A stretch of DNA of 30,085 nucleotides from an uncultured bacterium (GCA_963801165.1 CAWDDT010000002.1:1-30085); one strand, 5' to 3'. Counted from the stretch's first letter, positions 1 through 25,334 are shown. Made by a program: numbers and translations. Notes: generated from the letters alone by a model not told the origin.

Positions 1-598
1 GGCCCGTGTCGTCGCGGACCTCGAGAGGATCCCATGAGCCTCCGGCCGAACCGGACAGGCTCACCTCCACCGTCCGGGTGTCCTGGCGAAGTCCGGTGCG
101 GAGCACCTTCAGGGCACTCTCTTTGGCGGACCAGATCGCATTGGCAACGACGTCAGCGTCGGCGCTGTGAGCGACGGTGAGTTGCTCGGTTGGTGTCAGG
201 TAGTCAGAGACGAAGGCATCGCTACGCGGTTCTACCAACTCCAGGTCGCATCCCACCCGCATCCGGCCGCCGACAACGGCGCACACCGCCCAGTCGGCGC
301 GATCCGTCATCGCAATGACGGCCCCGAGAGGCGCGCCATTCACGTGTGCCTCCGGTGCACCGTCAGCTGCGTTGCGGACCACAATCGTGCGCAGCGTCGG
401 AGGATCAAGAGCCAACCCCAGAGTCATGGCGATGGCCAGCTTGGCCGTCCAACGTCCGAGACGCGTCTCCGAGCGGCGTTTGGTGTAGCGCATCTGACCG
501 AGTCTTCTATCGAGCTGCTCATCCACCCAGTCGTCGTGTCCCGGTACGGCGCCCATGCCAACCGAGAGCCAGGTCACCCGCCCCGCGTCCACACTCAT
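1..598 (-). CDS. 4'-phosphopantetheinyl transferase, Sfp-type (3' end runs off window)
   Basis: Manual translation from ATG 598-596, which overlaps the carboxylase stop as ATGA: MSVDAGRVTWLS...RRSETRLGRWTAK...VGCDLELVEPRS...AIWSAKESALKVLRTGL, open to base 1. GxDxE and WxxKE(S/A)xxK are the Sfp-family motifs. Not in the ORF track because there is no stop in the window. Confidence 0.92.
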   Translation of the reverse strand, partial: MSVDAGRVTWLSVGMGAVPGHDDWVDEQLDRRLGQMRYTKRRSETRLGRWTAKLAIAMTLGLALDPPTLRTIVVRNAADGAPEAHVNGAPLGAVIAMTDRADWAVCAVVGGRMRVGCDLELVEPRSDAFVSDYLTPTEQLTVAHSADADVVANAIWSAKESALKVLRTGLRQDTRTVEVSLSGSAGGSWDPLEVRDDTG

Positions 599-3500
599 CC
601 AACCTCAACCCGGGCTTTGCCGCGCTCGATGGCAGCAACTAGGTAGGGCCGCAACTCCTCGATCGGCAGGATCACATCGATCGATCCCATCTCCTTCGCC
701 CGCTGAACAGAATGGATCCGATCGAACTCGGCAGCTACCTCGCCCCGCTTCTCCGCGGCAACCGAGGCACGCAATTCGTCGAGTTGGTGCCGCAGTTCGG
801 CACGGGTGGAGCCGGAGGCCTGCCCGACCTGTTTCTCCAGCGCGATCACGCGCGGATCGGCATCGGTCAGCGCGTGAACCTCAGGAACGAACACGACCGC
901 TGCGGCTGGTGCTCCTCCAATGACCGATGCCCGCGATCCTTCGAGAGCGGCGACTTCCATGTTCGCGTTGAGCGTCTTCGAGAACACGACAAAGGCGCCG
1001 CCGTGATAACGCGATACCACACAAAAGACGATCGGTCCCTCGAAGTTGACGATGGCTCTGCCGATCTCAGCGCCGTATTCCAGTTGCCAGCGCCGCATTG
1101 ATTCGGGAGATCCATCGAACCCGGAGAGGTTGGCAAGCACGACGAGCGGTCGATTACCCGAGGCGGCGTTGATGGCACGCGCGACCTTCTTCGAGGCAAC
1201 CGGGAATAGCGTTCCGGACGTCCATTGCAGCGGTCCGTCTGCGGGGACGAATCCGAGCCGCGGTATTGGTTTCGACTCGACGCCGAGCAGCGCCACCGGG
1301 TGTCCGCCAATAAAGGCATCCAGCACAACGGCGGTCTCGGCGTGCTGCATCCCGTGCCATCGCTCCATCATGGGAAGATCGGCGTCGGTCACCGCCGCCA
1401 TAACCCGACGGATCTCAAAGGGGAGCTTCCGGTCGGAATTGTGCTCCGACGAGAACACGTCGCCGATGGTGGTGAAGTCACCCCCATGGGGAGCCGTGCG
1501 CACGTCGCGGTCAAGAGGATCGCTGGTTGCTGCCCTCCGCGGGAAACGCTCCCCCGGGGCGGAATAGGTGAAGGAGTAGTGGTCGAGCAGGATGCGGCAA
1601 GCATCGGAGATCTCCGCGGCGAAGTACTGCGCCTGCCCGTTCGGACCCATGATGCGCTCATACCCGCCGATGCCACGGTTGTCTTCGGCAGATACCCCGC
1701 CCGAGTAGTCGAGAGCACGCTTCCCTGTGAGAACCATGGCAGCTGCATCGGTCATCACCAGGATGCCCTTTGTATGCATCAGCATCGTGGCTTCTGCGTT
1801 CCAATAAGGTTGCGCCCCAACGTTGACTCCGGTGACGATGACGTTGAGCTCATGGCCGTGCTGGGTGAATTCGACGATGCGACGCAACACGCGGGCGATC
1901 CAGTCCATGTTCTCAGTTCCGGACTCCATTGAGATACGGGCCCCGGCCGATACCGCGAACCACTCGAGCGGGATGCCTTGCTCCTCGGCGAGATCCATCG
2001 CGGCGATGATCCGCCGGCACTCCTGCTCCGCGACGTTTCCCATGCCACGGGATGGATCCCCGAGGATCATGACCCGCCGCATGCCCTCCGGATAACGGGC
2101 CGCAACGTTGCTCACGAGACCGATCACTACGTTGGACGTGTTCTGCCCGCGGGGGCGCGATACGGGCTCGAGTCGACCATCGGCGGACATGTCGTATTCA
2201 ACGAAGCTCGCGAGGAGCTTCCCTTCCTCGTCGGTGCCGTTCGCATGTTGGAGAATCTCAATGATCTCCCAAGGGTGGAACACGCCACGACGTCGGAGGC
2301 GGACGATGGACTGGGCGACGTCCGATAGCGGCTGCATCGGCCCATCCCCGGGCTCTCGCATTTCGAGTCGCAGGCGGCCGCCGCCGGGGTTGTTGACGAT
2401 GAGGACCTGATTCCGAATATTGCCTTCCCCGTCGACAACACGCCCCCGGACCAAGACCCGTTCGATCCCGAGCCCCTTCGTCTCACGGGCAAAACGGTAG
2501 ACGAGGGCTCTCACCTCATCGAGGCTGAAGTTGAGCACGGGCCACACATAGATGACGACGCGGTTCCAGTGCAGACGACGATGCGGCGCCAATCGTGACT
2601 GATATTTCCTGATCGGCCCGAGGGTCTCGCGAAAGACTCTCTCGAACTCGGGTACCCGCACTACGCGGCCGTCCTCGTCGCGGATAGGGGTTAGGTCGCG
2701 CACTTCCGCCTGGGCAAACAGCCGTTCGTCGCGCGGGTTCTCCTTGGCTATCGCGTGGAATAGGTAGATATCGGACAGGCTAGGGAGGCGTTTGTATTTG
2801 AAATTGGAGAGACGCCACAACTCCAGCCGTTCGGCCATCATCGGGTGCAGGTCCCGATACATGGTGTCCTCCACATACCCTCCATCGCCGGAGCGCCGGA
2901 ATGTGAAGTTCAGCACTCCGCTCATCGAAACGTCACTGCCCGGTCCCGAAACGGCAACAACGATGCGCCGCAGTTGTAGGTCACCCAACGCCGCATCGAG
3001 GGTTTCGCGGATTCGCTTCTCGGTGCGATCCGGCGAGCCGTGTACCCGCGACCGGCGTGCGTAGATCTCAACCGCTAGGTCGTACTCCGGGTCAATCTCC
3101 TCGAGTGCCTCGTGAAGCGCCGCAACCCCCCGTTGCAGGTCTTCGAAGGCAACGTGAGTACTGGCCAAATGAATCCGACGACCCTCGTAGACATATTCGG
3201 TGGTCGAGATGACAATCCCATCGATACGCAGAGTGGAGAATGGACCCAGCTCCCGAATTCGGTAATAGCGGCGTGTCATGATCTCGAGGAGAGCCTCTTG
3301 GAGACGGGGAGAGGCACCGGCAAACCGCAACGACAGCGTTGGTTTCAGCGGTTGCGAGCAGGCAACGAGCTCCTTCACGATGGCAGCACGATCCATTTGA
3401 TTTGGATGGTGCTCGAGCTGGGCCAGCCGCTCGTCGACCTTCTCGTATTCTCGTTGTCTGACCTCCTGGAGGAAGGGCAGGTCAAACGTGGCGTAGCGGA

Positions 3501-6129
3501 GCTCGAGAGCGATTTCGTGCACCGCCGGGTACCGATCTTGCGTCTCGTGGACTAGGCGGTCGAGGAGCTCGCGGAAACGCTCGTTCGGATCTCCGACGTG
3601 AGCAAGCCTGTCTTCGAGGACTGTGAGCAGAGCCGGTACCTGGGTCTGCATCCGGGCGTGAGATTTCGCCAAGCGGAACAGCGCCTCAACCAAATCCGGT
3701 GTGGTGTGATCAAGAGAGTCAACCCCGAAATGACCGAGCGCACGCAACAGCTGCTGGGTGAATTGCTCAGGCAGAGCCCCGCGATGCGCCCCGAGGTCCC
3801 GCATGTAGTCGAACAGGTACTCCTCGGTAGTTCTCCGCTCGCCATTTGCGCCCTCTGCCGGGAGCGTTCTCCGAAACAACGAGATCACGTCCACGAAGAT
3901 CTCGAGAGCCTCGTCCTCGAGGTCTCGGACTGTTCGGTCGGCGCCGCCGGCAGTGCAACGCTCGCTGCCGGGAGCGATCATCGAGTCGAGATGTGCGGGT
4001 TTGACATCCCACCCCAGCAGCATTCTTTGCAGGGCCGCGAGATAGTGCTGGCATCTATGGTGAGTGACGTCGTCTGCGGAAAGGGCGTAGGGCCCGAGGT
4101 CCACCTCTTCATGGACGGGGTCGACGTCGGTCTCGTCTCCCGGATCGATGACCAACAGCGCGGTACCCGAACCGACCTGGGTGTTCTTTCTGGCCAGCAC
4201 CTTGCGGATCGTGCCGGCGAATTCGGCATTGATCGACGTCTCCATCTTCATCGCTTCGATCACCGCCAGACGGTCACCAGCCTTGACTCGATCACCCGGC
4301 GAGACGGCGATCGCTACCACAACCGCAGGCGACGGTGCCCGGACTATGCCGCCTTCGTCGTGAGCAATGCGGTGGGCAACACCGTCGACCTCGACGAAAT
4401 GGTTGGCGCCGTGGACAACCGAAATGACCCGGTATTCGCGCCCCGCACAGCTCAGCCTCTTTCCCGCACGTCCGAGATGGTCGAGATTCGCTTCGATGAT
4501 GTGCCCCGCTGAGGTGACCCGGTAACTCGTCGGCGCAGTCCTCTCGACTGTGAGCCCGTAGCGACGGCCACGGAAGCGAAGCTCGATCAGTTTTCCCGAC
4601 CCGGGCAGGATCTCGGGGCGCCCATGATTTGCGGTGTCCCGGAAGGCCATGATCTCGGTCGCAATCTGTTCGCGGTAGCCGTCGATGGCGGCGGCAATCA
4701 GCGCAGCCCCCGCCAGCGACGTATTCACCGAATCGGACGCAACCAACCGATCAACCCAGTCGGTGTCGTAGTTACCCGAGATGAAGTCGGGATTGGTGAG
4801 CGTGGCCTCCAAGAAGGCCTTGTTGGTTGCTCCCTCGCTGACGATGACCCTGCTTTGGCGGAGAGCACGCAGCAATCTGGCGCGGGCCTCCTCACGGCTG
4901 CGGCCGTATGCGATGACCTTTGCGATCATGGAGTCGAACTCGGGAGGAATCTCGTCGCCTTCCTCAACTCCGGAGTCGACCCGGATGCCCGGTCCGGCCG
5001 GGAATCGGAGCAGCTCGATCTTCCCTGCGGACGGGAGGAACTCCCGGTCGGGATCTTCGGCATTGAGCCGTGCCTCGATCGCATGGCCTTGGGTTGACGG
5101 TGGGTCTCCGTCGAGTGTCCCACCTCGGGCGATGTGGATCTGTAGCTTCACCAGATCCAGCCCCGTGGTCACTTCCGTTACCGGGTGCTCCACCTGGAGC
5201 CGGGTGTTGACCTCCATGAACGAGAAGGTGCCATCGGAGGTGTCGTACAGGAACTCGACAGTGCCGGCGCCGACATATCCGGCTTTGCCTCCCAGGCGGG
5301 CAGCTGCCTCCCTGATCTCTGCGTCCTGAGAGTCCGACAGGGCGGGAGAGGGGGCCTCCTCGATGATTTTCTGATTGCGTCGCTGCACCGAGCAGTCCCG
5401 CACTCCGACCGGCCAAACGGTCCCAGTGGCGTCTCCTACGATCTGCACTTCTATGTGGCGTGCGGCGACAACCACCTTTTCGAGGAAGACGGTGTCATCT
5501 CCGAAGGCGTTGAGGGCTTCCGCACGGGCCCGCGTGAACGATTCCTCGACCGACTCCGGTGTGTCGATGCGCCGAATTCCCCTGCCGCCGCCGCCGGTCG
5601 TTGCTTTGACCATGACCGGGTATCCGAGATGTGAGGCTATGCGGGTGGCCTCGGCCACCGTGTTCACGGCGCCCCCGCTCCACGCGGCGACCGGGACACC
5701 GGCCTCGGTGGCGATGTGCTTGGCTGTGATCTTGTCGCCGAGCCGGCGCATAACGTCGGGGTTTGGGCCGATATGGACGATATCGAGCCGCTTGCAGAGC
5801 ACCCCGAACTCAGGGTCCTCGGCGACGAATCCCCAGCCAACCCAGGCCGCATCTGCCTCGCTTTCGGTGAGGGCTCGCTCTAGCAGGTCGTAGTCGAGGT
5901 AGGCGGCCTTGCGGTTGCCGCCGGAGTCTCGGGAGGTGGCGGAACCCAGGCTGAAACGGATGTCGGCTTCCCGGACGAACAGCGCGTTCTCGTCGGAGTC
6001 GGTATAGAAGGCGATCGTCTTCAGCTCGGTCCCGAACTCGGAGTTGTATTCCGCTACGGCGTTGATCAGGCGTACGGCCGGCTCGCCTCGATTGACAATG
6101 GCGATCCGCTCAAAGCCCGTGATGGTCAC
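595..6129 (-). CDS. Single-chain biotin-dependent acyl-CoA carboxylase (BC-BT-BCCP-ACC central-CT), 1844 aa
   Basis: BC motifs NRGE, GGGGRG, RDCSVQRRNQKIIEE and FMEVNTRLQVEHPVTE. Biotinylation motif EAMKM (Lys628, nt 4246-4248). Central region LEIMTRRYYR and LELWRLSNF. CT motifs SAGARI, ANLSGFDG and GGAFVVF. GTG start overlaps the PKS stop (GTGA). Confidence 0.93.
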   Translation of the reverse strand: MTITGFERIAIVNRGEPAVRLINAVAEYNSEFGTELKTIAFYTDSDENALFVREADIRFSLGSATSRDSGGNRKAAYLDYDLLERALTESEADAAWVGWGFVAEDPEFGVLCKRLDIVHIGPNPDVMRRLGDKITAKHIATEAGVPVAAWSGGAVNTVAEATRIASHLGYPVMVKATTGGGGRGIRRIDTPESVEESFTRARAEALNAFGDDTVFLEKVVVAARHIEVQIVGDATGTVWPVGVRDCSVQRRNQKIIEEAPSPALSDSQDAEIREAAARLGGKAGYVGAGTVEFLYDTSDGTFSFMEVNTRLQVEHPVTEVTTGLDLVKLQIHIARGGTLDGDPPSTQGHAIEARLNAEDPDREFLPSAGKIELLRFPAGPGIRVDSGVEEGDEIPPEFDSMIAKVIAYGRSREEARARLLRALRQSRVIVSEGATNKAFLEATLTNPDFISGNYDTDWVDRLVASDSVNTSLAGAALIAAAIDGYREQIATEIMAFRDTANHGRPEILPGSGKLIELRFRGRRYGLTVERTAPTSYRVTSAGHIIEANLDHLGRAGKRLSCAGREYRVISVVHGANHFVEVDGVAHRIAHDEGGIVRAPSPAVVVAIAVSPGDRVKAGDRLAVIEAMKMETSINAEFAGTIRKVLARKNTQVGSGTALLVIDPGDETDVDPVHEEVDLGPYALSADDVTHHRCQHYLAALQRMLLGWDVKPAHLDSMIAPGSERCTAGGADRTVRDLEDEALEIFVDVISLFRRTLPAEGANGERRTTEEYLFDYMRDLGAHRGALPEQFTQQLLRALGHFGVDSLDHTTPDLVEALFRLAKSHARMQTQVPALLTVLEDRLAHVGDPNERFRELLDRLVHETQDRYPAVHEIALELRYATFDLPFLQEVRQREYEKVDERLAQLEHHPNQMDRAAIVKELVACSQPLKPTLSLRFAGASPRLQEALLEIMTRRYYRIRELGPFSTLRIDGIVISTTEYVYEGRRIHLASTHVAFEDLQRGVAALHEALEEIDPEYDLAVEIYARRSRVHGSPDRTEKRIRETLDAALGDLQLRRIVVAVSGPGSDVSMSGVLNFTFRRSGDGGYVEDTMYRDLHPMMAERLELWRLSNFKYKRLPSLSDIYLFHAIAKENPRDERLFAQAEVRDLTPIRDEDGRVVRVPEFERVFRETLGPIRKYQSRLAPHRRLHWNRVVIYVWPVLNFSLDEVRALVYRFARETKGLGIERVLVRGRVVDGEGNIRNQVLIVNNPGGGRLRLEMREPGDGPMQPLSDVAQSIVRLRRRGVFHPWEIIEILQHANGTDEEGKLLASFVEYDMSADGRLEPVSRPRGQNTSNVVIGLVSNVAARYPEGMRRVMILGDPSRGMGNVAEQECRRIIAAMDLAEEQGIPLEWFAVSAGARISMESGTENMDWIARVLRRIVEFTQHGHELNVIVTGVNVGAQPYWNAEATMLMHTKGILVMTDAAAMVLTGKRALDYSGGVSAEDNRGIGGYERIMGPNGQAQYFAAEISDACRILLDHYSFTYSAPGERFPRRAATSDPLDRDVRTAPHGGDFTTIGDVFSSEHNSDRKLPFEIRRVMAAVTDADLPMMERWHGMQHAETAVVLDAFIGGHPVALLGVESKPIPRLGFVPADGPLQWTSGTLFPVASKKVARAINAASGNRPLVVLANLSGFDGSPESMRRWQLEYGAEIGRAIVNFEGPIVFCVVSRYHGGAFVVFSKTLNANMEVAALEGSRASVIGGAPAAAVVFVPEVHALTDADPRVIALEKQVGQASGSTRAELRHQLDELRASVAAEKRGEVAAEFDRIHSVQRAKEMGSIDVILPIEELRPYLVAAIERGKARVEVG

Positions 6130-9100
6130 TCCTTCCTGGTCATTGCGTCGCGTAGTGGGGCTGCGAGATCGGAGTCGATCGGCGCCGGCAGTTGCACCGT
6201 CGTGTAGCCGGACATCGCAACAAGCGCTGACCCCTTCTCATCGGCGACGACGGCGTCGAACACGCCTCCATCGGCAGGGTGAACGACGGCGCATAGGTTG
6301 CCTTTTGCCTTTGTCACATCTCCTGCGTACACCACCCTATCGATGTGGCTAGGCAACGCCATCGTTCCCGCCGTTCCGATCTCCCAGATCCCCGCAGTCT
6401 GGAAAGCCAGCTCGGTGAGCCGTGGGGTTGTCACCAACGGCCGATCGTCGGGAACATGGTTGTGGGGAAGGTTGTGGGCCATGGCGCCTACGACCATGTC
6501 GCCATCCCTCCATGCTCCATCGACGACCTGGTAGGTGGGTCCGTGGAAATAGATCGCGTAGATGTCGCGTGGGCCGACCGTGCCGTCCGGTCGGGTCGGC
6601 ACCGTTGCTGGTTTGAGCCTCGGTTTGTCGTCCCCGAGCCGGATGCGGGCGGTGAAGTGAACTGTCCGCTGCGGCTCGCCCTGATTGGCAAGTGTACGGA
6701 CTCCAATCAGCTGACCAATGCCGACGATGCCATCGTCGTCGGCCGTGTACACAACCTCCACGGTGAGTACCCGTGGCTCGCCGCGATAGAACTTGAACGG
6801 CACGAGGAAGTTGATATCTTCGATCGCGGTGACGGTGAGTTGGGGGAATCCGGCCCGTGCTGCTGCGGCGAAGGCCTCTATTCCCATGACTCCAGGGAGA
6901 ACCGGGGTCCCGTCGATCTGATGATCGAACAGGAATGGCTGCTCGGACGGATCGAGCCGTACAGTCGCCCGCAGTCCGCTGTAGATGCCGAAACTCTCGA
7001 CCTCGCCTAGCATCACCGATCCGATGGCGCCGCCGCCTAGGGACTCTGTATCGAGGCCCCCGCTGGGGTGGAATTCGTCTGTCAGAACACCGAGCCGTTT
7101 CCCGACCACCATCTCTCCGCCGTGCGCCCGGCTCGTTATCTCCCTGCGCACTATCGGGATTCCTGCGACCGCGGGGAGCATGTCGATCCCCGCCGCCTTC
7201 ATCACGGTCGGGATCGAGCCACGGGTTGCCATACCGATGTCGCCCCAGGCGGTCCAGTCGATCGCCAAACCGAGCGTCCGTGCCTCATCAGAGCGGAGGC
7301 TCGCGGCGAACTTGCACAGCAGATCGTTCGCAGCCGAATAGTCGGATTGGCCGTTGTTGCCGAACCGGCCCGCCACTGAGCTGAACACGACGGCCGAGCG
7401 GATCGGTGTGTCGCCGAGTCCCTTGACCAGGTTGAACCATCCGTCGGCTTTCACGTCGAAGACCAGGTCGTACTCCTTGCGATCCTTGTCCGGGAGCAAC
7501 CGGCTTATCTCGAGCCCACCGGCGTGGAGTAGAACATCGACTTTCTGATGGTCGTGGCGAATCTGTTCCATCACGGCCCCAACCGCGTCGCCATCCCTCA
7601 GATCAACGCTGTGATAGGCGGCCGTCCCGCCGAATCCTTCAACCGCTTTGATTGTGCTCAAAGCCGCGTGTCGGCGCTCGATTCCGGCGAGCTGTCGCTC
7701 GACAATCGCCGGTGTTGCTTTTTCGCCCGCCGTCTTGAGACGATCGAAGATGGTCCGCTTCAGACCGTCCCTGTCGACACTGAACGCGGCAATGTCGGGG
7801 TCGGCTCTGTCGGGCTCAGGAGTGAGGTCGAGCAGATGGAATGTGCCTCCCGACGCTTTTGCCAGGTCGGCGGTTATCGCCGACACGATGCTCCCGGCGG
7901 CTCCGGTGACAACGAAGACAGAATCCGCACCTAGCTCGATAACGGCCGGTTCGGTGGGAAGGTCTTGTTCGGTGAGACCGATAGTCCAGCGTCGTCCTTC
8001 GTTGCGACCGATTTCGACGGCACCGGGATCGACGAGAGTCTCTTCGATCAGCGCGTCGGCCAGCGCGGCGGTCCTGCGGCTTGCGGAGAAGTCCACCGTC
8101 TTCACCAGTGCCTCGCTTTTCTCACGCTTGTACGCCTTGGTGAATCCGGTGACGGCACCACCCATCGGGGCGGTCGCTCCTTCAGCTCCATAGCCGTGGA
8201 ACCCGCCAAGACGCGTGGCGGAGACCAGGAAGGTGCCCTCCGCACCGACGACGTCGTAGAGATGCCGCATGGTTTCGTAAAGGAGCTTGACGCGACGGCG
8301 CAAGCTCTCCCGCCAGCCGGCGAGATCCAACTCTGCAATAGGCAGCTCACTGTCGAGCGCGGCCAGCCAGTAGACGCCGGTGATCTCACCATCGCTCGAG
8401 AATCCGTCGAGCCGAGAACGCAGCTCCTCCGCATCCGGGCTGTCGTCGATGGCGAGGACGGTGACTCCCAGCTTGGCTAGCCGCTTTAGGAGCGCCTTTC
8501 CGACCCCACCCTCGTCGAGCATGACAACGACCCGGCTGTTGTTGTCGAGTGTCACTCCGCTCGGGACACAGTGCTCGGCGGCCGGCCGCAAGAACGGTGT
8601 CGGTATGCGCCGCGGGATGTTTGCCGCCGCCTCGTCGTCACCCTCTAAGAGCCCGACCGGTAGTCCGATCGGATCTGGGCTCTCAACCCCCTTTGGCGTC
8701 GACGCCGTGGCGACACCGCCGGCGAGGTCGGGTCGTTTTTCGTAGACGAAGGCGATGACGTCGTTCAGGGTGGGGTAGTCACGCAACGCCAGGCTGTCGT
8801 CGCGTTCGATCCCGTATTCCTGACGGATGGCAGCAAACGTCTCTGCCTGTTTGACCGTGTCCACCCCGAGGTCTGCTTCCAGGTCGAGGTCGAGGTCCAA
8901 CATGTCGGGTGGGTAGCCGGTCTGCTCAGATACCAACGCCAACACCTGATCCGCCACCGCGTCGCCTTCAGGCTCAACCGGGACGGCAACCACCGCTGCT
9001 GCTGGAGCGGTCGGCGTCTCCTGGCGGGCTGCGAGGTCGGGTCGTTTTTCGTAGACGAAGGCGATGACGTCGTTCAGGGTGGGGTAGTCACGCAACGCCA

Positions 9101-12100
9101 GGCTGTCGTCGCGTTCGATCCCGTATTCCTGACGGATGGCAGCAAACGTCTCTGCCTGTTTGACCGTGTCCACCCCGAGGTCTGCTTCCAGGTCGAGGTC
9201 GAGGTCCAACATGTCGGGTGGGTAGCCGGTCTGCTCAGATACCAACGCCAACACCTGATCCGCCACCGCGTCGCCTTCAGGCTCAACCGGGACGGCAACC
9301 ACCGCTGCTGCTGGAGCGGTCGGCGTCTCCTGGCGGGCTGCGAGGTCGGGTCGTTTTTCGTAGACGAAGGCGATGACGTCGTTCAGGGTGGGGTAGTCAC
9401 GCAACGCCAGGCTGTCGTCGCGTTCGATCCCGTATTCCTGACGGATGGCAGCAAACGTCTCTGCCTGTTTGACCGTGTCCACCCCGAGGTCTGCTTCCAG
9501 GTCGAGGTCGAGGTCCAACATGTCGGGTGGGTAGCCGGTCTGCTCAGATACCAACGCCAACACCTGATCCGCCACCGCGTCGCCTTCAGGCTCAACCGGG
9601 ACGGCAACCACCGCTGCTGCTGGAGCGGTCGGCGTCTCCTGGCGGGCTGCGAGGTCGGGTCGTTTTTCGTAGACGAAGGCGATGACGTCGTTCAGGGTGG
9701 GGTAGTCACGCAACGCCAGGCTGTCGTCGCGTTCGATCCCGTATTCCTGACGGATGGCAGCAAACGTCTCTGCCTGTTTGACCGTGTCCACCCCGAGGTC
9801 TGCTTCCAGGTCGAGGTCGAGGTCCAACATGTCGGGTGGGTAGCCGGTCTGCTCAGATACCAACGCCAACACCTGATCCGCCACCGCGTCGCCTTCAGGC
9901 TCAACCGGGACGGCAACCACCGCTGCTGCTGGAGCGGTCGCGGCTGCCTCAACTTCGTGGGGTCTGCGCGCCACATCGGCGCTGGGCGCCGCTGCTTTCC
10001 CGTAGTCCCGCACCCGCAACGTGCGCTTCACGATCTCGACCTCGGCGGCAGGAAGCCCCGTTGCGGTGCGCAGCCAGTCATGCCAGCGGGCACGATCGAC
10101 CAAACGGGTGTCGTAGCCAAGCGCATCCGGAGCCGGGCGTGCTGCCCCGGCTGGACGGGTGTTCCGATAGAGAGTCAGGCTGATCTGCGAGCCGAAACCG
10201 GCGCCGAGCCGGAGTGCGTATTGGATGGGATAGGAGCCGCCACGGGCGAGGTTGAGAACGCCAAGATCCGGATCGGGTTCCCTGAAGTTGGGTACCGGCG
10301 GGACGATGCCCGTTTCCATGGCCTTGATAGCCAGTACATCCTCGACACCTACCGCCATAGCGTGCCCGGTGTACCCCTTCGTGTTGGAAATGACGATCTG
10401 GTCGGCCGATGAGCCGAATACGAATCGGAGTGCGTCGACCTCTGCCTGAGCGCTCCCTCCCCGTGCCGGTGTATAGGTTTCGTGGGATACGAAAACGGTG
10501 TTGGGAGCAATCTCGTGGCGATCGATGCCCCACCGACGCTCGGCGTCGGAGACCAGGGCTTCCATGGCACGGCAGATGTGCTCGGGATCGAGTCTGCTCC
10601 CATGGAATGCGCTGTTGGCCGTGAAGGTGCTGAGTACCTCGGCGATCGGCTCGAGACCACGGGCGCGCACAGAGTCGCGGTGCTCTACGACAATCGCGGC
10701 AGCGCCCATGCCGAGAATCAACCCGTGACGCCTGCGATCGAAGGGCACCGCGGCGTCCTCGACCAGCTCGTCGGTGGCGGCGGCGCCCATCGTCAAGAAT
10801 CCCGCTCCAATCCACTCGAGAAGCTGATCGCTGGTGACATCATCCCCTGAGATGATCACTACGCGTTCGCACCGTCCCAATCGAATCCAGTCTTCGGCAA
10901 TGGCGACGGCCTGGGTGGTGCTGGCACAGGCCGCGTTGATATGGGTGTTCGGGCCTTTGGCTCCGATGTACTCGGCGAACTGCGCATGGGCAAAAGCAAG
11001 CGCCCGGTACAGGAACTTGCGATCGAATGTGTATCCATTCTCTCCGATCTCGGTCTCGAGCTCAGCAACGCGACGCTGCATCGCAGCGGCGAGGCCCGAG
11101 GAGGCACCGCCGTCGGCGATCCCGGCGGTCAATGCCTTCAGCTCGGCGAGACGTTCTTCGACGGCATGGGCGGTGTAGTAGCGATCGGTCTCTTCCACCC
11201 ACGCATTGGAGCCGGGGAAGGCCGAGGCGAAGATCACGCCGGTCGTGGCTTGGTACGGCTCGGGGAGCATCCAACGCTCAGCGAGCTTCGCTCCGGTGGT
11301 TGTGTCCTTGTAGTGCATGACCAACGGGATACCGGCGTCGCGCAATGCATCGAGCCCTGCCCCGATGGCCAGCTCGCTGGAGCGATCAAGTGTTCCCGCA
11401 CGTTCCTGGGGGAAGCCAAACTCGGCGACAAGGTCGATGGTGCCACCCCGGCCTGCGAGCTTGATCACCTCCGACTCGCTCTCGATAGTCTCGAAGTGGC
11501 CACCGCCTGATTCCGATTTAACAAGACGGGTTATGTGCTTGGCCGCGATCTTCTGCCGCTGCTCATTCGGGATCGAACTGATGAACACCTTGCCCCGCAG
11601 CAAGTCGGGGATCTTGTCATCGCCAAATACCCGGTCGCCGCCGGGTAGCCCGAGCCCGGCACCGGTGACCACCACCGGTTCGTCGATGGGGAGGTCGGTT
11701 CCGGGGGCAGGTCGCGCTGGAGCCGGCCGCTGCTGGCCCCCGAAGATGGCTGCCCCTTTCTCTAGAAAATCTGCAAATAGGTGACCGAGTTCCACGTACA
11801 CATCACCGTCGCCCTGAGCCGACACTGCTGGCTGCGCCCCGGCAGCGGTCCGAGGAGGTGCCGGCCGATGCTCGCGCACGGGCCGGGGGGCGCTCCTTGT
11901 TGGCTCCGGGGTCACACCCTCCGAACGTCGTCCCACCCCGAGACCGGCCGCGTACAGCCCACACAGGCCCTGGTTGAACGAGACGTTGTCGCCTAGCTTT
12001 GGGTGATTGGTGAAGAGAGTCACGACCTCGTCATCGGCGCCGAGCACATCGTCGGCCAATCCCTGGAGGGCCTTCTTCGGACCGACCTCGACAAACACCC

Positions 12101-14729
12101 GGCAGCCTGCTTCGTGGAGAGTATGCAGACCACTGACGAACTGAACCGGCGAAGCGATCTGCCTGCCGAGAATGTCGATCATCCTCGGGACCACGTTTGG
12201 TCCCATCGGGTAAAACTCACCGTCGACGTTGGCGACGATCGGAATCGCGGGCGACTCGAGTCGAAGCCTATCCAACAGGTCTCTCAATGGGATGGCAGCC
12301 GGCGCAACTATCTCGGTGTGAAAGGCATGGCTGACCGGCAGCGGGATGACTTGTGCGCCCGCCTGTGCCAACCGATTGGCCGCCTCGGTCACACCTGCAG
12401 TTGAACCACCAATTACCGCTTGCTTCGTGCTGTTGTAGTTGGCGACGACGACGTAGTCGTCCACCTCCTCTGTGACACGCACAATGTCGTCGAGAGGGGC
12501 GAACACTGCAGCCATCCGTCCCTTGTCCTCGACTTCGACCGACGCCATCTCCCTGCCTCGTCCGGCGACCGCCTCTAGGGCATCCTCGAAGGGGAGGGCG
12601 CCGGCCGCAACCAGGGCACCGTATTCACCGAGGCTATGGCCCATGACCATGTCCGGATAGATGCCATATGCTGCCAGTAGATTGGTGAGGGCATCGTCGA
12701 CGGCGAGTACCGCAGGCTGTGTGATCTCCGTCTGCCGCAGCTCCTGGTCGGCGGCTTGCATCGCCGCCTGATCGTCGGGATCGGCAAATATGTAGGCGCT
12801 CAGCGGCTTGCCAAGCACCGGCTCCATGATCCTGTCGGCTTTCTCGAACGCACTGGCGACGATCGGTTCCGACTTGCGCAAGCCATCGAGCATGTTTACG
12901 TATTGCGATCCCTGGCCGGTGTAGAGAAATGCCACCATGCCCGGGGTACCGGTGCCCCGGAACACTCCCTGGTTGCGTAGGGCTTTCCACATGGGCGGGC
13001 TGTCGGCATCGATAGCCTTGATGGCCTTTTCGGCCCGGGCGGCGAGATCAACAGCATCGCCGTAGTCGATCGCAACCCGAGCCGCGGCGCGTAGGTCCGC
13101 CTCCAGGGGTGGCTCCGGGGGCGGTGCCGCGCCGTCGACAGCGGCTTCAGCAATCACCTCGAGACGGTGCCGGACTTGTTCCATAGTCGCGGCTCCCACA
13201 ACGAGAGCGCCCCGCAGCGGTGCCTTCAGCTCTACATCGTTCACATCAGATGTGGGACGCGGGGCTACAACGACGTGCGAGGAAGATCGATCTCCGACCC
13301 GGAGCCGGCCGGGAACGTACTCCTCCAACACAATGTGGAAGTTCGTACCGCCAAAGCCAAACGCGCTGACTGCCGCAGTCCGAACCTGACCCGGCTCGGT
13401 CTTCCACTCGCGCAGTTCCTTGTTGATGAAGAGCGGCGAGCGCGAGAAATCGATGCTGGGGTTGGGCCGGGTACCGCCAAGACTCGGCGCAAGCAGCTTC
13501 TCATCGAGCGACATCACAGCTTTGAGCATTCCGGCAGCTCCGGCGGCACTCTTCAGGTGCCCTATGTTGGACTTCACCGAACCGAGGGCGACAGATCCGG
13601 GCCGCAGGTCGAGATCGGCAAACACTCGCGACAGGCTCTCGACTTCGACCACGTCGCCGACTCGTGTCGAGGTGCCGTGGCCTTCCACATACGTGGCCGA
13701 GCTAGGCACGAGGTTGGCGTTGCGCCAGGCGCGGGAGATGGCGAACTCCTGACCAATCGGGTTGGGCGCGGTGATTCCCTTGCCACGACCGTCGCTCGAT
13801 CCACCGAGTCCGCGGACCACGGCGTAAACGTGGTCGCCATCACGCTCCGCGTCTGCGAGCCGCTTCAGCAGGAGCACTGCGGCACCCTCACCCATTACGA
13901 ACCCATCCGCACCGTCGTGGTACGGCCGCGTGCCCGTTGCCGAAAGTGCGCCGATTTTGCAGAACTTGATGAAGCTGGGGACGCCCATATTGGCGTCGAT
14001 GCCGCCGGTCAGCACCGCGTCGTAATCACCGCGCTCCAGGCCTCCGATCGCGGCGCTGATGGCGGCAAGCGCCGAGGCGCATGCCGCGTCGACGATGAAG
14101 TTTGGACCATGGAAGTTGTATAGATTCGCCACCCGACCCGCGATGATGTTGCTCAGCTCACCCGGCATTGTGTCTTCGGTGATACTCGGGAATCTGTCTC
14201 GCACACCTCCCAGCAGCTCAGTCAGGATCGATTCCCGCACGGCAGCGTCCAGCGCCGCAAAGGTGGGCGCGTTGCTCAGCTCTTCGGCATACTCCGGGTA
14301 GTAGGCACGGAGGGCGGTCAGATAGTGCATCTCGCCTGCCATGGCATTTCCGAGCACAACTGCCGTGCGGTCGGGATCTAGCGGTCGATCGGGATAGCCG
14401 TAGTCGAGGAGCGCTTCGCGGGATGCAGTAATCGACCACTTCTGCGTCGGGTCCATCGCATCGCTGACCTTGGGAGGTATCGGCATCCGCCACTCGAGTG
14501 GGGAGAAGTCGACATCTTGGACCCACCCGCCAATGATCGAATACGTCTTGTCGGGGGCCTTGGGGTCGGCGTCGTAGTAGAGATTCGGGTCCCAACGGCC
14601 GGCAGGCACGTCGCTGATCGAGTACCTTCCCGATTTCAGGTTCTCCCAGTAGGTAGCGGCGTTGGGTGCGTCCGGTAATACCGCGCCCACTCCAACTACT
14701 GCGACTGCTCTCTCGACCTGTTCCGGCAT
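6126..14729 (-). CDS. Iterative type I PKS/FAS, Pfa-like: KS-AT-KS-ACP x4-KR-DH, 2867 aa
   Basis: KS1 DAACAS/EGHGTST/KSNIGH. AT GQGSQY/GHSLG/HAFH (malonyl-type fingerprint). KS2 NAACAS/SHETYT/TKGYTGH. Four DLEADLGVDTVKQ carrier repeats. KR TGAAGSI...FSSVAG...DYSAAN. DH HQIDGTPVLP. GGGGAG RBS upstream of ATG 14729. No ER or TE motif recognised. Confidence 0.93.
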   Translation of the reverse strand: MPEQVERAVAVVGVGAVLPDAPNAATYWENLKSGRYSISDVPAGRWDPNLYYDADPKAPDKTYSIIGGWVQDVDFSPLEWRMPIPPKVSDAMDPTQKWSITASREALLDYGYPDRPLDPDRTAVVLGNAMAGEMHYLTALRAYYPEYAEELSNAPTFAALDAAVRESILTELLGGVRDRFPSITEDTMPGELSNIIAGRVANLYNFHGPNFIVDAACASALAAISAAIGGLERGDYDAVLTGGIDANMGVPSFIKFCKIGALSATGTRPYHDGADGFVMGEGAAVLLLKRLADAERDGDHVYAVVRGLGGSSDGRGKGITAPNPIGQEFAISRAWRNANLVPSSATYVEGHGTSTRVGDVVEVESLSRVFADLDLRPGSVALGSVKSNIGHLKSAAGAAGMLKAVMSLDEKLLAPSLGGTRPNPSIDFSRSPLFINKELREWKTEPGQVRTAAVSAFGFGGTNFHIVLEEYVPGRLRVGDRSSSHVVVAPRPTSDVNDVELKAPLRGALVVGAATMEQVRHRLEVIAEAAVDGAAPPPEPPLEADLRAAARVAIDYGDAVDLAARAEKAIKAIDADSPPMWKALRNQGVFRGTGTPGMVAFLYTGQGSQYVNMLDGLRKSEPIVASAFEKADRIMEPVLGKPLSAYIFADPDDQAAMQAADQELRQTEITQPAVLAVDDALTNLLAAYGIYPDMVMGHSLGEYGALVAAGALPFEDALEAVAGRGREMASVEVEDKGRMAAVFAPLDDIVRVTEEVDDYVVVANYNSTKQAVIGGSTAGVTEAANRLAQAGAQVIPLPVSHAFHTEIVAPAAIPLRDLLDRLRLESPAIPIVANVDGEFYPMGPNVVPRMIDILGRQIASPVQFVSGLHTLHEAGCRVFVEVGPKKALQGLADDVLGADDEVVTLFTNHPKLGDNVSFNQGLCGLYAAGLGVGRRSEGVTPEPTRSAPRPVREHRPAPPRTAAGAQPAVSAQGDGDVYVELGHLFADFLEKGAAIFGGQQRPAPARPAPGTDLPIDEPVVVTGAGLGLPGGDRVFGDDKIPDLLRGKVFISSIPNEQRQKIAAKHITRLVKSESGGGHFETIESESEVIKLAGRGGTIDLVAEFGFPQERAGTLDRSSELAIGAGLDALRDAGIPLVMHYKDTTTGAKLAERWMLPEPYQATTGVIFASAFPGSNAWVEETDRYYTAHAVEERLAELKALTAGIADGGASSGLAAAMQRRVAELETEIGENGYTFDRKFLYRALAFAHAQFAEYIGAKGPNTHINAACASTTQAVAIAEDWIRLGRCERVVIISGDDVTSDQLLEWIGAGFLTMGAAATDELVEDAAVPFDRRRHGLILGMGAAAIVVEHRDSVRARGLEPIAEVLSTFTANSAFHGSRLDPEHICRAMEALVSDAERRWGIDRHEIAPNTVFVSHETYTPARGGSAQAEVDALRFVFGSSADQIVISNTKGYTGHAMAVGVEDVLAIKAMETGIVPPVPNFREPDPDLGVLNLARGGSYPIQYALRLGAGFGSQISLTLYRNTRPAGAARPAPDALGYDTRLVDRARWHDWLRTATGLPAAEVEIVKRTLRVRDYGKAAAPSADVARRPHEVEAAATAPAAAVVAVPVEPEGDAVADQVLALVSEQTGYPPDMLDLDLDLEADLGVDTVKQAETFAAIRQEYGIERDDSLALRDYPTLNDVIAFVYEKRPDLAARQETPTAPAAAVVAVPVEPEGDAVADQVLALVSEQTGYPPDMLDLDLDLEADLGVDTVKQAETFAAIRQEYGIERDDSLALRDYPTLNDVIAFVYEKRPDLAARQETPTAPAAAVVAVPVEPEGDAVADQVLALVSEQTGYPPDMLDLDLDLEADLGVDTVKQAETFAAIRQEYGIERDDSLALRDYPTLNDVIAFVYEKRPDLAARQETPTAPAAAVVAVPVEPEGDAVADQVLALVSEQTGYPPDMLDLDLDLEADLGVDTVKQAETFAAIRQEYGIERDDSLALRDYPTLNDVIAFVYEKRPDLAGGVATASTPKGVESPDPIGLPVGLLEGDDEAAANIPRRIPTPFLRPAAEHCVPSGVTLDNNSRVVVMLDEGGVGKALLKRLAKLGVTVLAIDDSPDAEELRSRLDGFSSDGEITGVYWLAALDSELPIAELDLAGWRESLRRRVKLLYETMRHLYDVVGAEGTFLVSATRLGGFHGYGAEGATAPMGGAVTGFTKAYKREKSEALVKTVDFSASRRTAALADALIEETLVDPGAVEIGRNEGRRWTIGLTEQDLPTEPAVIELGADSVFVVTGAAGSIVSAITADLAKASGGTFHLLDLTPEPDRADPDIAAFSVDRDGLKRTIFDRLKTAGEKATPAIVERQLAGIERRHAALSTIKAVEGFGGTAAYHSVDLRDGDAVGAVMEQIRHDHQKVDVLLHAGGLEISRLLPDKDRKEYDLVFDVKADGWFNLVKGLGDTPIRSAVVFSSVAGRFGNNGQSDYSAANDLLCKFAASLRSDEARTLGLAIDWTAWGDIGMATRGSIPTVMKAAGIDMLPAVAGIPIVRREITSRAHGGEMVVGKRLGVLTDEFHPSGGLDTESLGGGAIGSVMLGEVESFGIYSGLRATVRLDPSEQPFLFDHQIDGTPVLPGVMGIEAFAAAARAGFPQLTVTAIEDINFLVPFKFYRGEPRVLTVEVVYTADDDGIVGIGQLIGVRTLANQGEPQRTVHFTARIRLGDDKPRLKPATVPTRPDGTVGPRDIYAIYFHGPTYQVVDGAWRDGDMVVGAMAHNLPHNHVPDDRPLVTTPRLTELAFQTAGIWEIGTAGTMALPSHIDRVVYAGDVTKAKGNLCAVVHPADGGVFDAVVADEKGSALVAMSGYTTVQLPAPIDSDLAAPLRDAMTRKE
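8722..9940. repeat. Tandem 309-bp repeat, about 3.9 copies, encoding four ACP-like domains plus Ala/Pro linkers
   Basis: Units start at 8722, 9031, 9340 and 9649. I see no differences between copies. The alternative-frame ORFs at 8765, 9074 and 9383 translate identically, which supports identity at synonymous sites. Confidence 0.95.
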
Positions 14730-14774
14730 ATGGCGGTACTCCCCTGATCTACTCGTGTGTGATGTGGCTCTGGT

Positions 14775-16430: not shown

Positions 16431-16475
16431 GTGCTCTCCCTCCACAGCCGCGTAGGCAGATGGTCGTGTGTGTCA

Positions 16476-16488
16476 AACGTAATACGTT
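16476..16488. promoter_or_regulatory. Short palindrome in the divergent intergenic region, possible operator
   Basis: AACGTA-A-TACGTT, adjacent to a minus-strand TTGACA (16471-16476). An AT-rich patch in GC-rich DNA. Confidence 0.3.
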
Positions 16489-16642
16489 GAGGCGTCCTTG
16501 GCGAAGGAACTTGCGATACCACTCAGCCGAGGCGAGCTGCCGGCGCTACCAGTCGACTTCGCCGACTGTTACTCTGGACAGTAGGGCTTCAGGACGAATA
16601 CGATCGACCTCCTCCCTCTCGCACCCCCTCCGCAGGAACAAG

Positions 16643-18115
16643 ATGGCCGAATCGACACGGGCGCATACTCGGCAGGACCGAACACTCCCGAGAATCATCC
16701 AGGGCGGTATGGGAGTCGCCATCTCCGGCTGGGAATTGGCGAACGCGGTTGCCCGCAGAGGCCAGATGGGCGTGGTGTCGGGCACGATTCTCGAAGTGGT
16801 GATGGCGCGGCGGCTGCAGCTCGGCGATCCCGGCGGTCATGTGCGCAGAGCTTTGCACAACTTCCCCTTCCGCTCGGCTGCGGAACGGATCATCGATACC
16901 TACTACGAGCCGGCGGACGGCAAAGGCCCGAAGCAGCTCAAGAACGTTCGCACGTTCACAGTCGTACCGGGTCTGCCACTTCAGGAACTGACCGTCGCCG
17001 CCAACTTTGTGGAAGTGTTCCTGGCGAAGGAGGGCCACAACGGTCCGGTAGGCATCAACTACCTGAGGAAAATCGAGATGCCGATCCCCTTCTCGATCTA
17101 CGGTGCTTTGCTGGCGGGGGTGGACTACATCATCGTCGGGGCGGGGAATCCTAAGGAATTGCCCCATCTCATCTCCGAGCTGGCGGAACATCGGGCGGTA
17201 CGGCTGCCGTTGCGAGTCCAGGGACTCACATCGAAGGACGCCGATGTGGAGATGAGATTCGACCCATCGGATATCAACGAGGGCCGTCTACCCCCGATTA
17301 GCCGGCCCCGATTCCTTGCCATCGTTGCGTCGAACGATCTGGCGGCAGCACTGGCGGGTATGCCCGAAGCACCGGACGGGTTCGTTATCGAGAAGCCCAG
17401 CGCAGGAGGCCACAACGCTCCGCCGCGCGGGCCCCGAAGAATCGACGAGCTTGGACAACCGGTCTACGACAAGAAGGACGAAGTCGATCTCGCCGAGCTG
17501 CGCACCCTCGGACTGCCTTTCTGGCTCGCCGGATCGTTCGGTACCCCGGAGGGTCTGCGCCGGGCGCTCCGAGAAGGGGCCGCGGGGGTGCAAGTCGGCA
17601 CCGCTTTTGCATTCTGTGAGGAATCGGGCCTCGTTGCCGACATCAAGCGGACGATCACCAAGCAAGTAGCGGACGGCACCGTTGAAGTGCTTTCGGATTG
17701 GCGAGCATCGCCAACGGGGTTCCCGTTTCGGATTGTCCAGGTGGATGGAACCCTGTCCGACGAAGCGGTGTACGACGATCGGTCCCGGGTGTGCGACCTC
17801 GGGGCATTACGCGTACCGTACCAGACAGAAAACGGTTCCATTGGGTACCGCTGTCCTGCAGAGCCGCTACGCGCCTACATCGAGATCAAAGGGGGAAGGG
17901 CCGCCAATACCGAACAGCGGCTATGTCTGTGCAACGGGCTGTTGGCGACGGCTGGACTGCCGCAATTCCGGGCGAAGAGCGGATACGAGGAACCGGCGCT
18001 CGTTACCGCGGGTTCGGATTTCAGCGGCGTGAAAGAGCTCATGCAGCGGCGCACACCAGGCGAGTCCTTCTACACAGCCGACGAGGTAATCGACTACTTG
18101 ATGAGCAACGCGTAG
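16643..18115 (+). CDS. FMN TIM-barrel oxidoreductase, nitronate monooxygenase/FabK/FabX family, 490 aa
   Basis: IIQGGMGVAIS, SAGGHN, WLAGS, GVQVGTAF and SPTGFPFR. C-terminal C-x19-C-x23-C-x-C. AGGA RBS before ATG 16643; the ORF-track extension from 16460 looks non-coding. Confidence 0.87.
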   Translation: MAESTRAHTRQDRTLPRIIQGGMGVAISGWELANAVARRGQMGVVSGTILEVVMARRLQLGDPGGHVRRALHNFPFRSAAERIIDTYYEPADGKGPKQLKNVRTFTVVPGLPLQELTVAANFVEVFLAKEGHNGPVGINYLRKIEMPIPFSIYGALLAGVDYIIVGAGNPKELPHLISELAEHRAVRLPLRVQGLTSKDADVEMRFDPSDINEGRLPPISRPRFLAIVASNDLAAALAGMPEAPDGFVIEKPSAGGHNAPPRGPRRIDELGQPVYDKKDEVDLAELRTLGLPFWLAGSFGTPEGLRRALREGAAGVQVGTAFAFCEESGLVADIKRTITKQVADGTVEVLSDWRASPTGFPFRIVQVDGTLSDEAVYDDRSRVCDLGALRVPYQTENGSIGYRCPAEPLRAYIEIKGGRAANTEQRLCLCNGLLATAGLPQFRAKSGYEEPALVTAGSDFSGVKELMQRRTPGESFYTADEVIDYLMSNA

Positions 18116-18748: not shown

Positions 18749-18874
18749 GGGATGACCCTACCGCTCGCAAGTCCTAGCGGTCGAGCGCTCTGTTGCGGTG
18801 GCCCGGAGCTGTTTGCTGGCACGTGGAGCCTCGCGGCTCGGACCTGCCCGCCCAGCGCGCGAGATTCCGGGTGT

Positions 18875-18920
18875 TCGGACTCGTACCAAAGGTCGCAGAT
18901 TCGAACCCTGCCCTCGCTAC
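18875..18920 (+). pseudogene. Degenerate 3' half of an initiator tRNA-Met (att-like scar)
   Basis: TCGGACTCGTACCAAAGGTCGCAGATTCGAACCCTGCCCTCGCTAC resembles the tRNA-fMet 3' half (GGCTCATAACCCxxAGGTCGCAGGTTCRAATCCTGxCCCCGCTAC, recalled consensus). T-arm GCAGA-TTCGAAC-CCTGC. No 5' half or D-arm. Confidence 0.55.
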
Positions 18921-18957
18921 GAAGAAGCCCGTGGTAGTCCTACATCTACCAGCGAAC

Positions 18958-19575: not shown

Positions 19576-19691
19576 AGGTCTCTCCAATGGAAATGGGATT
19601 CGGGTGTCCGTGTGTCCAGCATAAATCTTGCGAGCGGGCGTCCCAGGTTGGGTTTCGTGAGAGCAGTCGCCGTGTCTCGTAATGTGTGCGT

Positions 19692-21662: not shown

Positions 21663-21694
21663 ATGGTCGCACCGCCGGGGAGCCTCGACGGCAG

Positions 21695-21732
21695 TTCGGG
21701 TGGTCCCGCCGATAGCCACGGGACCACCCGAA
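21695..21732. terminator. Stem-loop between convergent genes, probable bidirectional terminator
   Basis: Perfect 14-bp stem TTCGGGTGGTCCCG / CGGGACCACCCGAA with a 10-nt loop. No U-tract. Confidence 0.65.
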
Positions 21733-21756
21733 TGATGGGTCATGCGATCGTGGTCT

Positions 21757-25309: not shown

Positions 25310-25334
25310 GTAGGGTCGCAGGCTCGGACCCTAC
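25310..25334. terminator. Hairpin overlapping the permease stop codon
   Basis: GTAGGGTC-N9-GACCCTAC inverted repeat. Confidence 0.3.

Follow-up and report, generated by a model that had tools for sequence, protein, structure and literature searches.

How does a bacterial synthase of the Pfa type, encoded together with its own carboxylase and phosphopantetheinyl transferase (PPTase), load its carrier domains and reduce its acyl chain when the gene beside it encodes an acyl-CoA dehydrogenase (ACAD) and not PfaD? The question is raised by an uncultured bacterium (genome of 4.55 Mb in 13 contigs, 98% complete) in which contig 2 opens with a stretch of 30,085 bases (GCA_963801165.1 CAWDDT010000002.1:1-30085) that we refer to as the window. 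Judged from its open reading frames (ORFs), window 2-16445 on the minus strand is one operon, in which the ACAD gene is followed by the genes for a polyketide synthase (PKS), the carboxylase, and the PPTase. Matched against the architecture that the relevant passages of Shulse and Allen (2011, PMC3098273) describe as Type R, the operon fits that class. We hold with moderate confidence that it is a Pfa-like Type R secondary lipid synthase and that it would work by the scheme proposed below, in which the ACAD takes the position of PfaD.

The conserved unit and its distribution

The ORF listing gives five ORFs, four on the minus strand and one divergent from them (Table 1). Pfam places the domains of the PKS chain in the order ketosynthase (KS; residues 7-473), acyltransferase (AT; 601-896), second KS (about 1244-1482), four PP-binding domains, ketoreductase (KR; 2273-2496), and PKS-type dehydratase (DH; 2584-2852). 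Domain calls came from Pfam and NCBIfam scans with E-values of about 1e-13 to 1e-67, so that chance matches are no concern. These ORFs, the domain order with its four tandem acyl carrier protein (ACP) domains, the single-chain carboxylase, and the PPTase are as an earlier note on this DNA had claimed. The two 4-base overlaps that it named were likewise confirmed on the minus strand. The ATG of the PPTase gene overlaps the stop codon of the carboxylase gene in ATGA (598-595), and the GTG of the carboxylase gene overlaps the stop codon of the PKS gene in GTGA (6129-6126), with AGGAAGGA before the overlap. Between the ACAD stop and the PKS start lie 45 nucleotides, inside which stands GGGGAG.

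Does this arrangement recur in other genomes? Of 8000 candidates scored in a search with the second-KS region, 3906 proteins had an E-value of ≤0.001; the best of those with names came from Acidimicrobiia, Acidobacteriota, and Myxococcota. Full-length homologues (n = 13, aligned with the window PKS) were 56-75% identical to it. A scan of one genome per species revealed at least 589 confirmed relatives among the 600 pattern matches listed, and the locus counts that follow were drawn from the best 80 of these relatives by tblastn with the window proteins. Most of the 80 loci are from Acidobacteriota; the others belong to Acidimicrobiia, Gemmatimonadota, Anaerolineae (Chloroflexota), Myxococcota, Bacteroidota/Rhodothermales, Woeseiaceae, Binatia, and Eremiobacteraceae, and one comes from a cultured Amycolatopsis (L066). 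The ACAD gene was directly upstream of the PKS gene in 67 of the 71 loci with at least 1.8 kb of upstream sequence; among the remaining four, one (L067) has the ACAD gene 780 bp away and three have none. Where the PKS gene was complete and at least 7 kb of downstream sequence was available, the PPTase gene followed in every case (46/46), and a single-chain carboxylase gene stood between the two in 34 of these 46 loci. The fifth gene, which encodes a flavoprotein of the nitronate monooxygenase (NMO) family, was found in only 1 of the 80 public loci (L016) and in 2 of the 6 close-relative loci with enough upstream DNA (8 were checked, comprising 7 from the same family and L016). Co-occurrence of all five genes, as the earlier note had proposed, was therefore borne out for four of them: since the NMO gene rarely recurs, the conserved unit comprises four genes and not five.

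The earlier note had also expected similar architectures to appear in surveys of Pfa-like clusters, and they do. As described in the Type R passages of PMC3098273, this class has one pfaA homologue with the order KS-MAT-CLF-ACP(3-6)-KR (MAT, malonyl acyltransferase; CLF, chain length factor), a PPTase downstream, and an uncharacterized product; it was found in Koribacter, Solibacter, Elusimicrobium, and Roseiflexus, and in Koribacter versatilis the pfaA homologue and the PPTase gene are separated by a carboxylase gene. The window operon shares with this description the order KS-AT-KS'-4 ACP-KR (with a DH in addition), the downstream PPTase, the carboxylase in between, and the scatter over phyla. 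It differs in the upstream ACAD/ETF genes of its family (ETF, electron transfer flavoprotein), the C-terminal DH, and the threonine of the ACP domains, none of which those passages mention for Type R, and the domain that they label CLF instead keeps Cys-His-His in the window. Metagenome-assembled loci of Korobacteraceae and Solibacteraceae (L028, L049, and L050) show 53-60% identity, and L049 also has an adjacent ACAD gene and a downstream PPTase gene.

Carrier sites, enoyl reduction, and extender supply

Beyond a routine PUFA-like call (PUFA, polyunsaturated fatty acid), comparison of the sequences points to three family-wide traits: an ACAD with ETF in PfaD's place, threonine at the carrier sites, and alternative forms of a dedicated carboxylase. 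Which of the proteins encoded here could reduce the enoyl intermediate? In every public locus without an ACAD gene (L052, L055, and L068, all from Anaerolineae), a PfaD gene comes right after the PPTase gene, in convergent orientation (PfaD_N, NMO, and FabD_helical_ins domains; TIGR02814, 685 bits versus a cut-off of 449). PfaD was found neither within the flanks of any other locus nor in the window, and the 98%-complete genome gave no match to the PfaD family (TIGR02814). In the L055 genome, no orthologue of the cluster ACAD was detected, the best match being 34% identical. The synthase was present in 11 of 301 sampled Chloroflexota genomes; among the 8 Chloroflexota loci fetched, 7 have the ACAD and 1 (L128, which may come from a genome already counted as L052, L055, or L068) has PfaD and no ACAD. 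This mutual exclusion of ACAD and PfaD is the main reason for reading the ACAD with ETF as an enoyl reductase; on this gene pattern, the ACAD probably fills that role in the system.

To find partners of the ACAD, all ORFs were clustered across the 54 loci of at least 20 kb. Genes for an iron-sulfur (Fe-S) protein with a CCG domain, EtfB, and EtfA stand, in this order, directly upstream of the ACAD gene in 31-33 of these loci, mostly from Acidobacteriota. The Fe-S protein (704 amino acids [aa]) has two CxxCxxCxxxC (4Fe-4S) motifs, the CCG domain, and four predicted membrane helices. Elsewhere in the genome of the window there are two EtfA homologues and an Fe-S/CCG homologue that is 34% identical.

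The ACAD itself keeps the catalytic glutamate of the YEGT motif and has a helical C-terminal extension of about 170 aa with no Pfam match. An AlphaFold2 model built from 23 orthologues (pLDDT, 86) matched human very-long-chain acyl-CoA dehydrogenase (VLCAD), human ACAD9, and the bacterial structures 3owa and 2z1q over the full length, with template modeling (TM) scores of 0.74-0.77 and 23-26% identity; the matches span 559-599 alignment columns (7s7g, 3b96, 3owa, and 2z1q). Because the VLCAD fold is matched over its full length, we describe the ACAD as VLCAD-like, and its substrate is presumably a long chain. Its likeness to these enzymes includes the C-terminal helical domain; the difference is that the window ACAD stands in a biosynthetic context. 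Among the top NCBIfam names, for the ACAD as well as for EtfA and EtfB, is the acryloyl-CoA reductase complex, with every score below cut-off. Butyryl-CoA dehydrogenase-Etf, the caffeyl-CoA reductase CarCDE, and acryloyl-CoA reductase, which are among the sequence or structure matches, illustrate that an ACAD with EtfAB can work as a reductase. Their substrates are short CoA esters in fermentation, whereas the window ACAD belongs with a type I synthase and carries a C-terminal domain of the VLCAD type; its matches to these enzymes fall below the family cut-offs.

Where would phosphopantetheine be attached in this synthase? The ACP-coding units are 309-bp tandem repeats of 100% DNA identity in 3.9 copies; as the repeats are identical, assembly could have collapsed or inflated their number. 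Homologues carry one to six units, three being the commonest. Each unit of the window (EADLGVDTVKQAE) has threonine, not serine, at the phosphopantetheine position (motif DLGVDTVKQAE). In a MAFFT alignment, this threonine is aligned with the serine of the genome's own AcpP (DVDSL), and HMMER alignments to the solved ACPs 5y08, 2ehs, 2lol, and 6lvt again place it in the serine column; these two methods were used instead of BLASTP, which gave no useful alignment of AcpP with the unit. A phmmer search of 216 homologous sequences (121 database proteins and 95 locus translations, partly redundant) with the unit revealed ACP domains in 179 of them, 526 in total, with threonine at this position in every domain and serine in none. 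Motif counts likewise gave threonine in 321/321 and 259/259 cases, and no other serine is conserved within the unit in the alignment consensus. The control (n = 1), a different Pfa-like PKS in the relative G015, has the usual GIDSIK. Since the PPTase gene is present in all 46 complete loci, the simplest reading is that its product modifies the threonine, and we infer that the cluster PPTase would attach phosphopantetheine to this residue.

The PPTase ORF of the window has 199 aa compared to a median of 254 aa in the ORFs of relatives; the window begins at the contig end, and thus the C-terminal part of the protein is missing. In L066 (19195-19782, Amycolatopsis) and L092 (24047-24658, Actinomycetota), the PPTase gene is on the strand opposite the PKS and carboxylase genes, unlike in the remaining loci.

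How is the extender unit supplied? In the PDB, the closest matches to the carboxyltransferase (CT) domain of the window carboxylase are the CTs of fungal and human acetyl-CoA carboxylases (ACCs; 62-81 bits), with CTs of the propionyl-CoA carboxylase (PCC) or AccD type at 28-38 bits, and the ACC_central domain matches at 75 bits. On the basis of this CT similarity and the central domain, the carboxylase was placed with the eukaryote-like multidomain ACCs, and we infer that acetyl-CoA is its substrate. A carboxylase of the long-chain acyl-CoA type, which has a PCC-beta-type CT and no ACC central domain, was rejected on the ACC_central match and on the higher scores of the ACC CTs relative to the PCC-type CTs. 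In one Chloroflexota locus (L124, 15287-18947), the PPTase gene is followed by separate genes for CT (553 aa), biotin carboxylase (BC; 493 aa), and biotin carboxyl carrier protein (BCCP; 164 aa), which replace the single-chain enzyme. A dedicated carboxylase thus recurs in another form, which fits a role in extender supply.

Among bacterial single-chain enzymes, the description of SACE_4237 of Saccharopolyspora erythraea, a multidomain eukaryote-like ACC (PMC6491548), matches the window carboxylase in its BC, BCCP, central region, and CT and in the kinship of the CT to eukaryotic ACCs. According to that description, SACE_4237 is an essential housekeeping enzyme, whereas the window carboxylase is an accessory gene product of a lipid-synthase operon beside a separate heteromeric carboxylase. 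In L027 (17839-21828) and L072 (18522-22658), the carboxylase match begins only at residue about 473-484, and the BC domain is apparently missing beside the PKS; this gene may correspond to what one passage of PMC3098273 words as "part of the ACC complex" for Koribacter.

In the synthase, the HAFH motif of the AT is invariant in the alignment, as is H2603, the residue at which the HxxxGxxxxP motif of the DH begins. The second KS has a core that resembles FabF and a divergent N-terminal half, and its Cys1268, His1416, and His1456 are invariant in 14/14 aligned sequences. With Cys-His-His and a FabF-like core retained, this domain is probably active in condensation. A 2530-aa homologue (P0023) combines PKS domains (AT, KR, DH, and ACP) with biotin-carboxylase Pfam domains; it is either a natural fusion of PKS and carboxylase or two genes that gene calling has run together at their 4-base overlap.

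In the open-access literature searched, we found no characterized product for a cluster of this kind, no relevant report of a threonine-linked phosphopantetheine, no enoyl-reductase-type ACAD as partner of such a synthase, and no description of the three-subunit carboxylase variant in such loci. The earlier note, which knew of no assigned product, is supported in its view that the locus encodes an uncharacterized lipid synthase of Pfa-like type together with a carboxylase and a PPTase of its own.

Proposed working of the synthase and alternatives to it

In the scheme that we propose, the domains are present and conserved, and their roles are read from them. The single-chain eukaryote-type carboxylase would make malonyl-CoA, and the malonyl-type AT would charge the tandem ACPs, activated by the co-encoded PPTase, with malonyl groups. 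Rounds of elongation would be split between the two KS domains, whose catalytic residues appear intact, and the KR and PKS-type DH would yield enoyl-ACP. The VLCAD-like ACAD, fed through ETF, would then reduce the enoyl thioester in trans, taking the position of PfaD in PUFA synthases; in many phyla, the membrane Fe-S/CCG protein may couple ETF to the quinone pool. The expected product would be a long or very long acyl chain, mostly saturated or trans-unsaturated, which would pass to acyltransferases of the cell. In the absence of a FabA-type isomerizing dehydratase, the product should not be a cis-PUFA. More tentatively, we consider it possible that both departures hold jointly, that is, that phosphopantetheine is attached to threonine by the accompanying PPTase and that PfaD is replaced by an ETF-driven VLCAD-like ACAD (with the membrane Fe-S protein in many phyla), so that chain reduction would draw on the quinone or ETF pool.

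Several observations weigh against this scheme. Neither ETF nor Fe-S genes were found beside the window operon. The exclusivity of PfaD and ACAD was seen in one lineage and so represents one evolutionary event. ACADs normally oxidize their substrates, and the catalytic glutamate is compatible with both directions. ETF with a membrane Fe-S protein is the standard exit of beta-oxidation into the quinone pool. The carboxylase gene is absent from 12 of the 46 complete loci. We take HAFH to be the signature of a malonyl-type AT, and Cys1268, His1416, and His1456 are presumably the catalytic triad of the second KS by the general motifs of such enzymes. Finally, the clustering of ORFs in the 54 long loci revealed no conserved thioesterase or acyltransferase that could release the chain. 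The earlier note's description of the system as self-contained is thus not supported: the cluster lacks a conserved release enzyme, and the ETF and Fe-S genes that accompany the ACAD gene in about 60% of the long loci are not in the window.

Could the ACAD work in its usual direction? It would then introduce a trans-2 double bond into the finished chain, into an intermediate, or into an acyl-CoA primer and pass electrons through ETF and the Fe-S/CCG protein to quinones; the synthase would have no enoyl reductase, and its product would be unsaturated or hydroxylated. This alternative survives better than the others, although we regard it as unlikely. The retained YEGT glutamate, the normal ACAD acceptor chain encoded upstream in other loci, and the fold of VLCAD, a beta-oxidation enzyme, would all suit an oxidase. 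However, the loci without ACAD carry the enoyl reductase PfaD, and no locus has both; moreover, the KR and DH already make 2-enoyl intermediates, to which a 2,3-desaturase would add nothing obvious. These data favor the reading of the ACAD as the enoyl reductase.

A second alternative concerns the substrate of the carboxylase. Some single-chain bacterial carboxylases reportedly act on long chains, as Tran et al. are said to have described in 2015. If the window enzyme converted long-chain acyl-CoA to 2-carboxyacyl-CoA, the second KS could perform a head-to-head condensation like that of mycolic acid synthesis and form a branched lipid; the divergent N-terminal half of this KS and the very-long-chain type of the ACAD are in line with such a pathway. 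We consider it very improbable, given that ACC_central is present, that the CT is closest to eukaryotic acetyl-CoA carboxylases, and that the AT has the invariant malonyl-type HAFH motif. In addition, the single-chain carboxylase is missing in 12/46 loci, and in L124 an ordinary three-subunit enzyme takes its place. Supply of malonyl-CoA is thus the role that we retain for the carboxylase.

Equally doubtful is a synthase of the PUFA (PfaABCD) or heterocyst-glycolipid (HglE) type with cis-polyunsaturated or hydroxylated chains. PfaA (TIGR02813) is the best NCBIfam model for the window PKS, and the PfaABCD(E) systems share with the window the PfaA-like core of KS-AT-tandem ACP-KR-DH, its iterative use, the dedicated Sfp-type PPTase, and a flavoprotein reductase acting in trans. 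The PfaA score, however, is below the cut-off (929.6 versus 1010.1 bits), and the window cluster is without PfaB, PfaC with its FabA-type dehydratases, and PfaD, which occurs only in the Anaerolineae variants. No PfaC-like KS-CLF-FabA-DH protein was found in the cluster, and outside the window only fabF matched KS in the genome. The window chain also has an inserted second KS and threonine at the carrier site, and there are no conserved glycosyltransferase or reductase genes nearby. An uncharacterized class with PfaD's position filled by the ACAD remains the reading that we prefer.

Is the cluster a primary or a secondary pathway? The earlier note had left both choices, and the data speak for the second. 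The genes fabD, fabG, acpP, and fabF are together on contig 6 of the genome. A separate carboxylase is encoded on contig 4, where a gene for a 590-aa BC-containing (AccA-like) protein stands beside one for a 538-aa CT, and a further CT gene on contig 6 brings the AccD-type CTs to two. Among related genomes, a strong second-KS match (E < 1e-260) was given by 6 of the 14 others in the same genus and by 2 of the 10 in other genera of the family; the 16 genomes that represent other families of the order gave none (nor did the 14 that remain without the unpublished G027 and G038). Several of the relatives without a match are near-complete (95-100%), for example, G007 at 95%, with G017-G024 at 79-100%. 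Because the fab genes and a separate carboxylase are present and the cluster is patchy among relatives, the cluster is, by this gene content, a secondary pathway that is predicted to work beside the type II fatty acid synthase (FAS). An alternative primary FAS, to which a full cycle with a trans-acting reductase and co-encoded malonyl-CoA supply and carrier activation would have lent itself, has next to no standing in a 98%-complete genome with these genes and with near-complete relatives that do without the cluster.

Window features, neighboring genes, and implications

Table 1. Predicted features of the synthase operon and of the divergent gene next to it
Feature	Coordinates	Strand	Basis
Sfp-type 4'-phosphopantetheinyl transferase, C-terminal part cut off	2..598	-	Pfam ACPS, E 7e-13
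Single-chain eukaryote-type acyl-CoA carboxylase, 1844 aa	595..6129	-	Pfam BC, BCCP, ACC_central, CT
Carboxylase BC domain	4750-6114	-	Pfam, above cut-off
Carboxylase BCCP domain	4147-4344	-	Pfam, above cut-off
Carboxylase ACC_central domain	2482-3003	-	Pfam, above cut-off
Carboxylase CT domain	628-2208	-	Pfam, above cut-off
Iterative PfaA-like type I synthase, 2867 aa (P0001)	6126..14729	-	Pfam, NCBIfam
KS; C217, H351, and H391 invariant in alignment	13311..14711	-	Pfam, alignment
Acyltransferase, GHSLGE and HAFH motifs	12042..12929	-	Pfam, motif, alignment
Second KS; FabF-like core 10284-11000	10014..11678	-	Pfam, alignment, core comparison
Four tandem ACP domains	8722..9940	-	Repeat analysis, alignments
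Ketoreductase	7242..7913	-	Pfam
PKS-type dehydratase (PKS_DH_N and PS-DH)	6174..6980	-	Pfam, motif, alignment
VLCAD-like acyl-CoA dehydrogenase, 556 aa	14775..16445	-	Pfam three-domain ACAD core, fold match
NMO-family flavoprotein, divergent; neighbor	16643..18115 (ORF as listed from 16460, 551 aa)	+	Pfam NMO

The first 61 codons of the NMO ORF (16460-16642) encode an arginine-rich stretch not shared by relatives, whose alignments begin at residue 53 or 77. Judging by these alignments, translation probably starts at the ATG at 16643; the ACAD and NMO genes would then diverge from about 200 bp of intergenic DNA. The NMO protein compared to true PfaD gave an E-value of 1 and had no match to a PfaD model; on the FabK model it scored 25.5 bits versus a cut-off of 453, and its nearest Atlas clusters are generic "nitronate monooxygenase" proteins of about 490 aa. 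As it is neither PfaD nor FabK at curated cut-offs and recurs as rarely as reported above, we rejected the NMO gene as a member of the cluster.

The rest of the window (18793-30022) carries a gene like that of GH127 beta-L-arabinofuranosidase (19686-21662), two SRPBCC/AHSA1 genes, and genes for a PALP enzyme and a RibD_C protein. On the minus strand it has a short-chain dehydrogenase/reductase (SDR) gene (22256-23155) and a pair of ABC-2 transporter genes accompanied by a DUF4097 gene (25331-28059). With a 300-aa ORF, the GH127 gene, and the SDR gene as queries, none was found to recur beside the synthase in the 8 close-relative loci. In a genome of the same family (L102, 2201-3586), a TIR-domain gene (TIR_2, ThsB_TIR), probably an unrelated defense gene, lies just upstream of the ACAD gene. 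Near-identical DNA is present in soil and salt-marsh metagenome runs of several studies. In one salt-marsh metatranscriptome run, three 151-nucleotide contigs match the window at 100% identity, at 15010-15160 (ACAD) and at 16526-16676 and 16736-16886 (NMO side); because DNA is possible in such libraries, these contigs do not show transcription, and the stretches that they leave uncovered carry no meaning.

What would these features mean for the organisms that carry the cluster? At the species level, at least 589 genomes spread over eight or more phyla encode the synthase, among them those of abundant soil Acidobacteriota and of Acidimicrobiia from salt marsh and soil, and the lipid of a class catalogued in 2011 is still uncharacterized. 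The ACAD/ETF module at PfaD's place in one lineage suggests how the chain may be reduced, and the presence of a eukaryote-type ACC as a dedicated member of a biosynthetic operon is relevant to how such ACCs arose. If the carriers are modified as proposed, threonine carriers would escape the ordinary holo-ACP synthase of the cell and perhaps its hydrolase as well. The modified threonine would be a linkage for which we found no report, and the carrier and PPTase would form an orthogonal pair for engineering. Together, the exchange of PfaD for an ACAD and the threonine carriers turn a vague PUFA-like label into specific biochemical questions.

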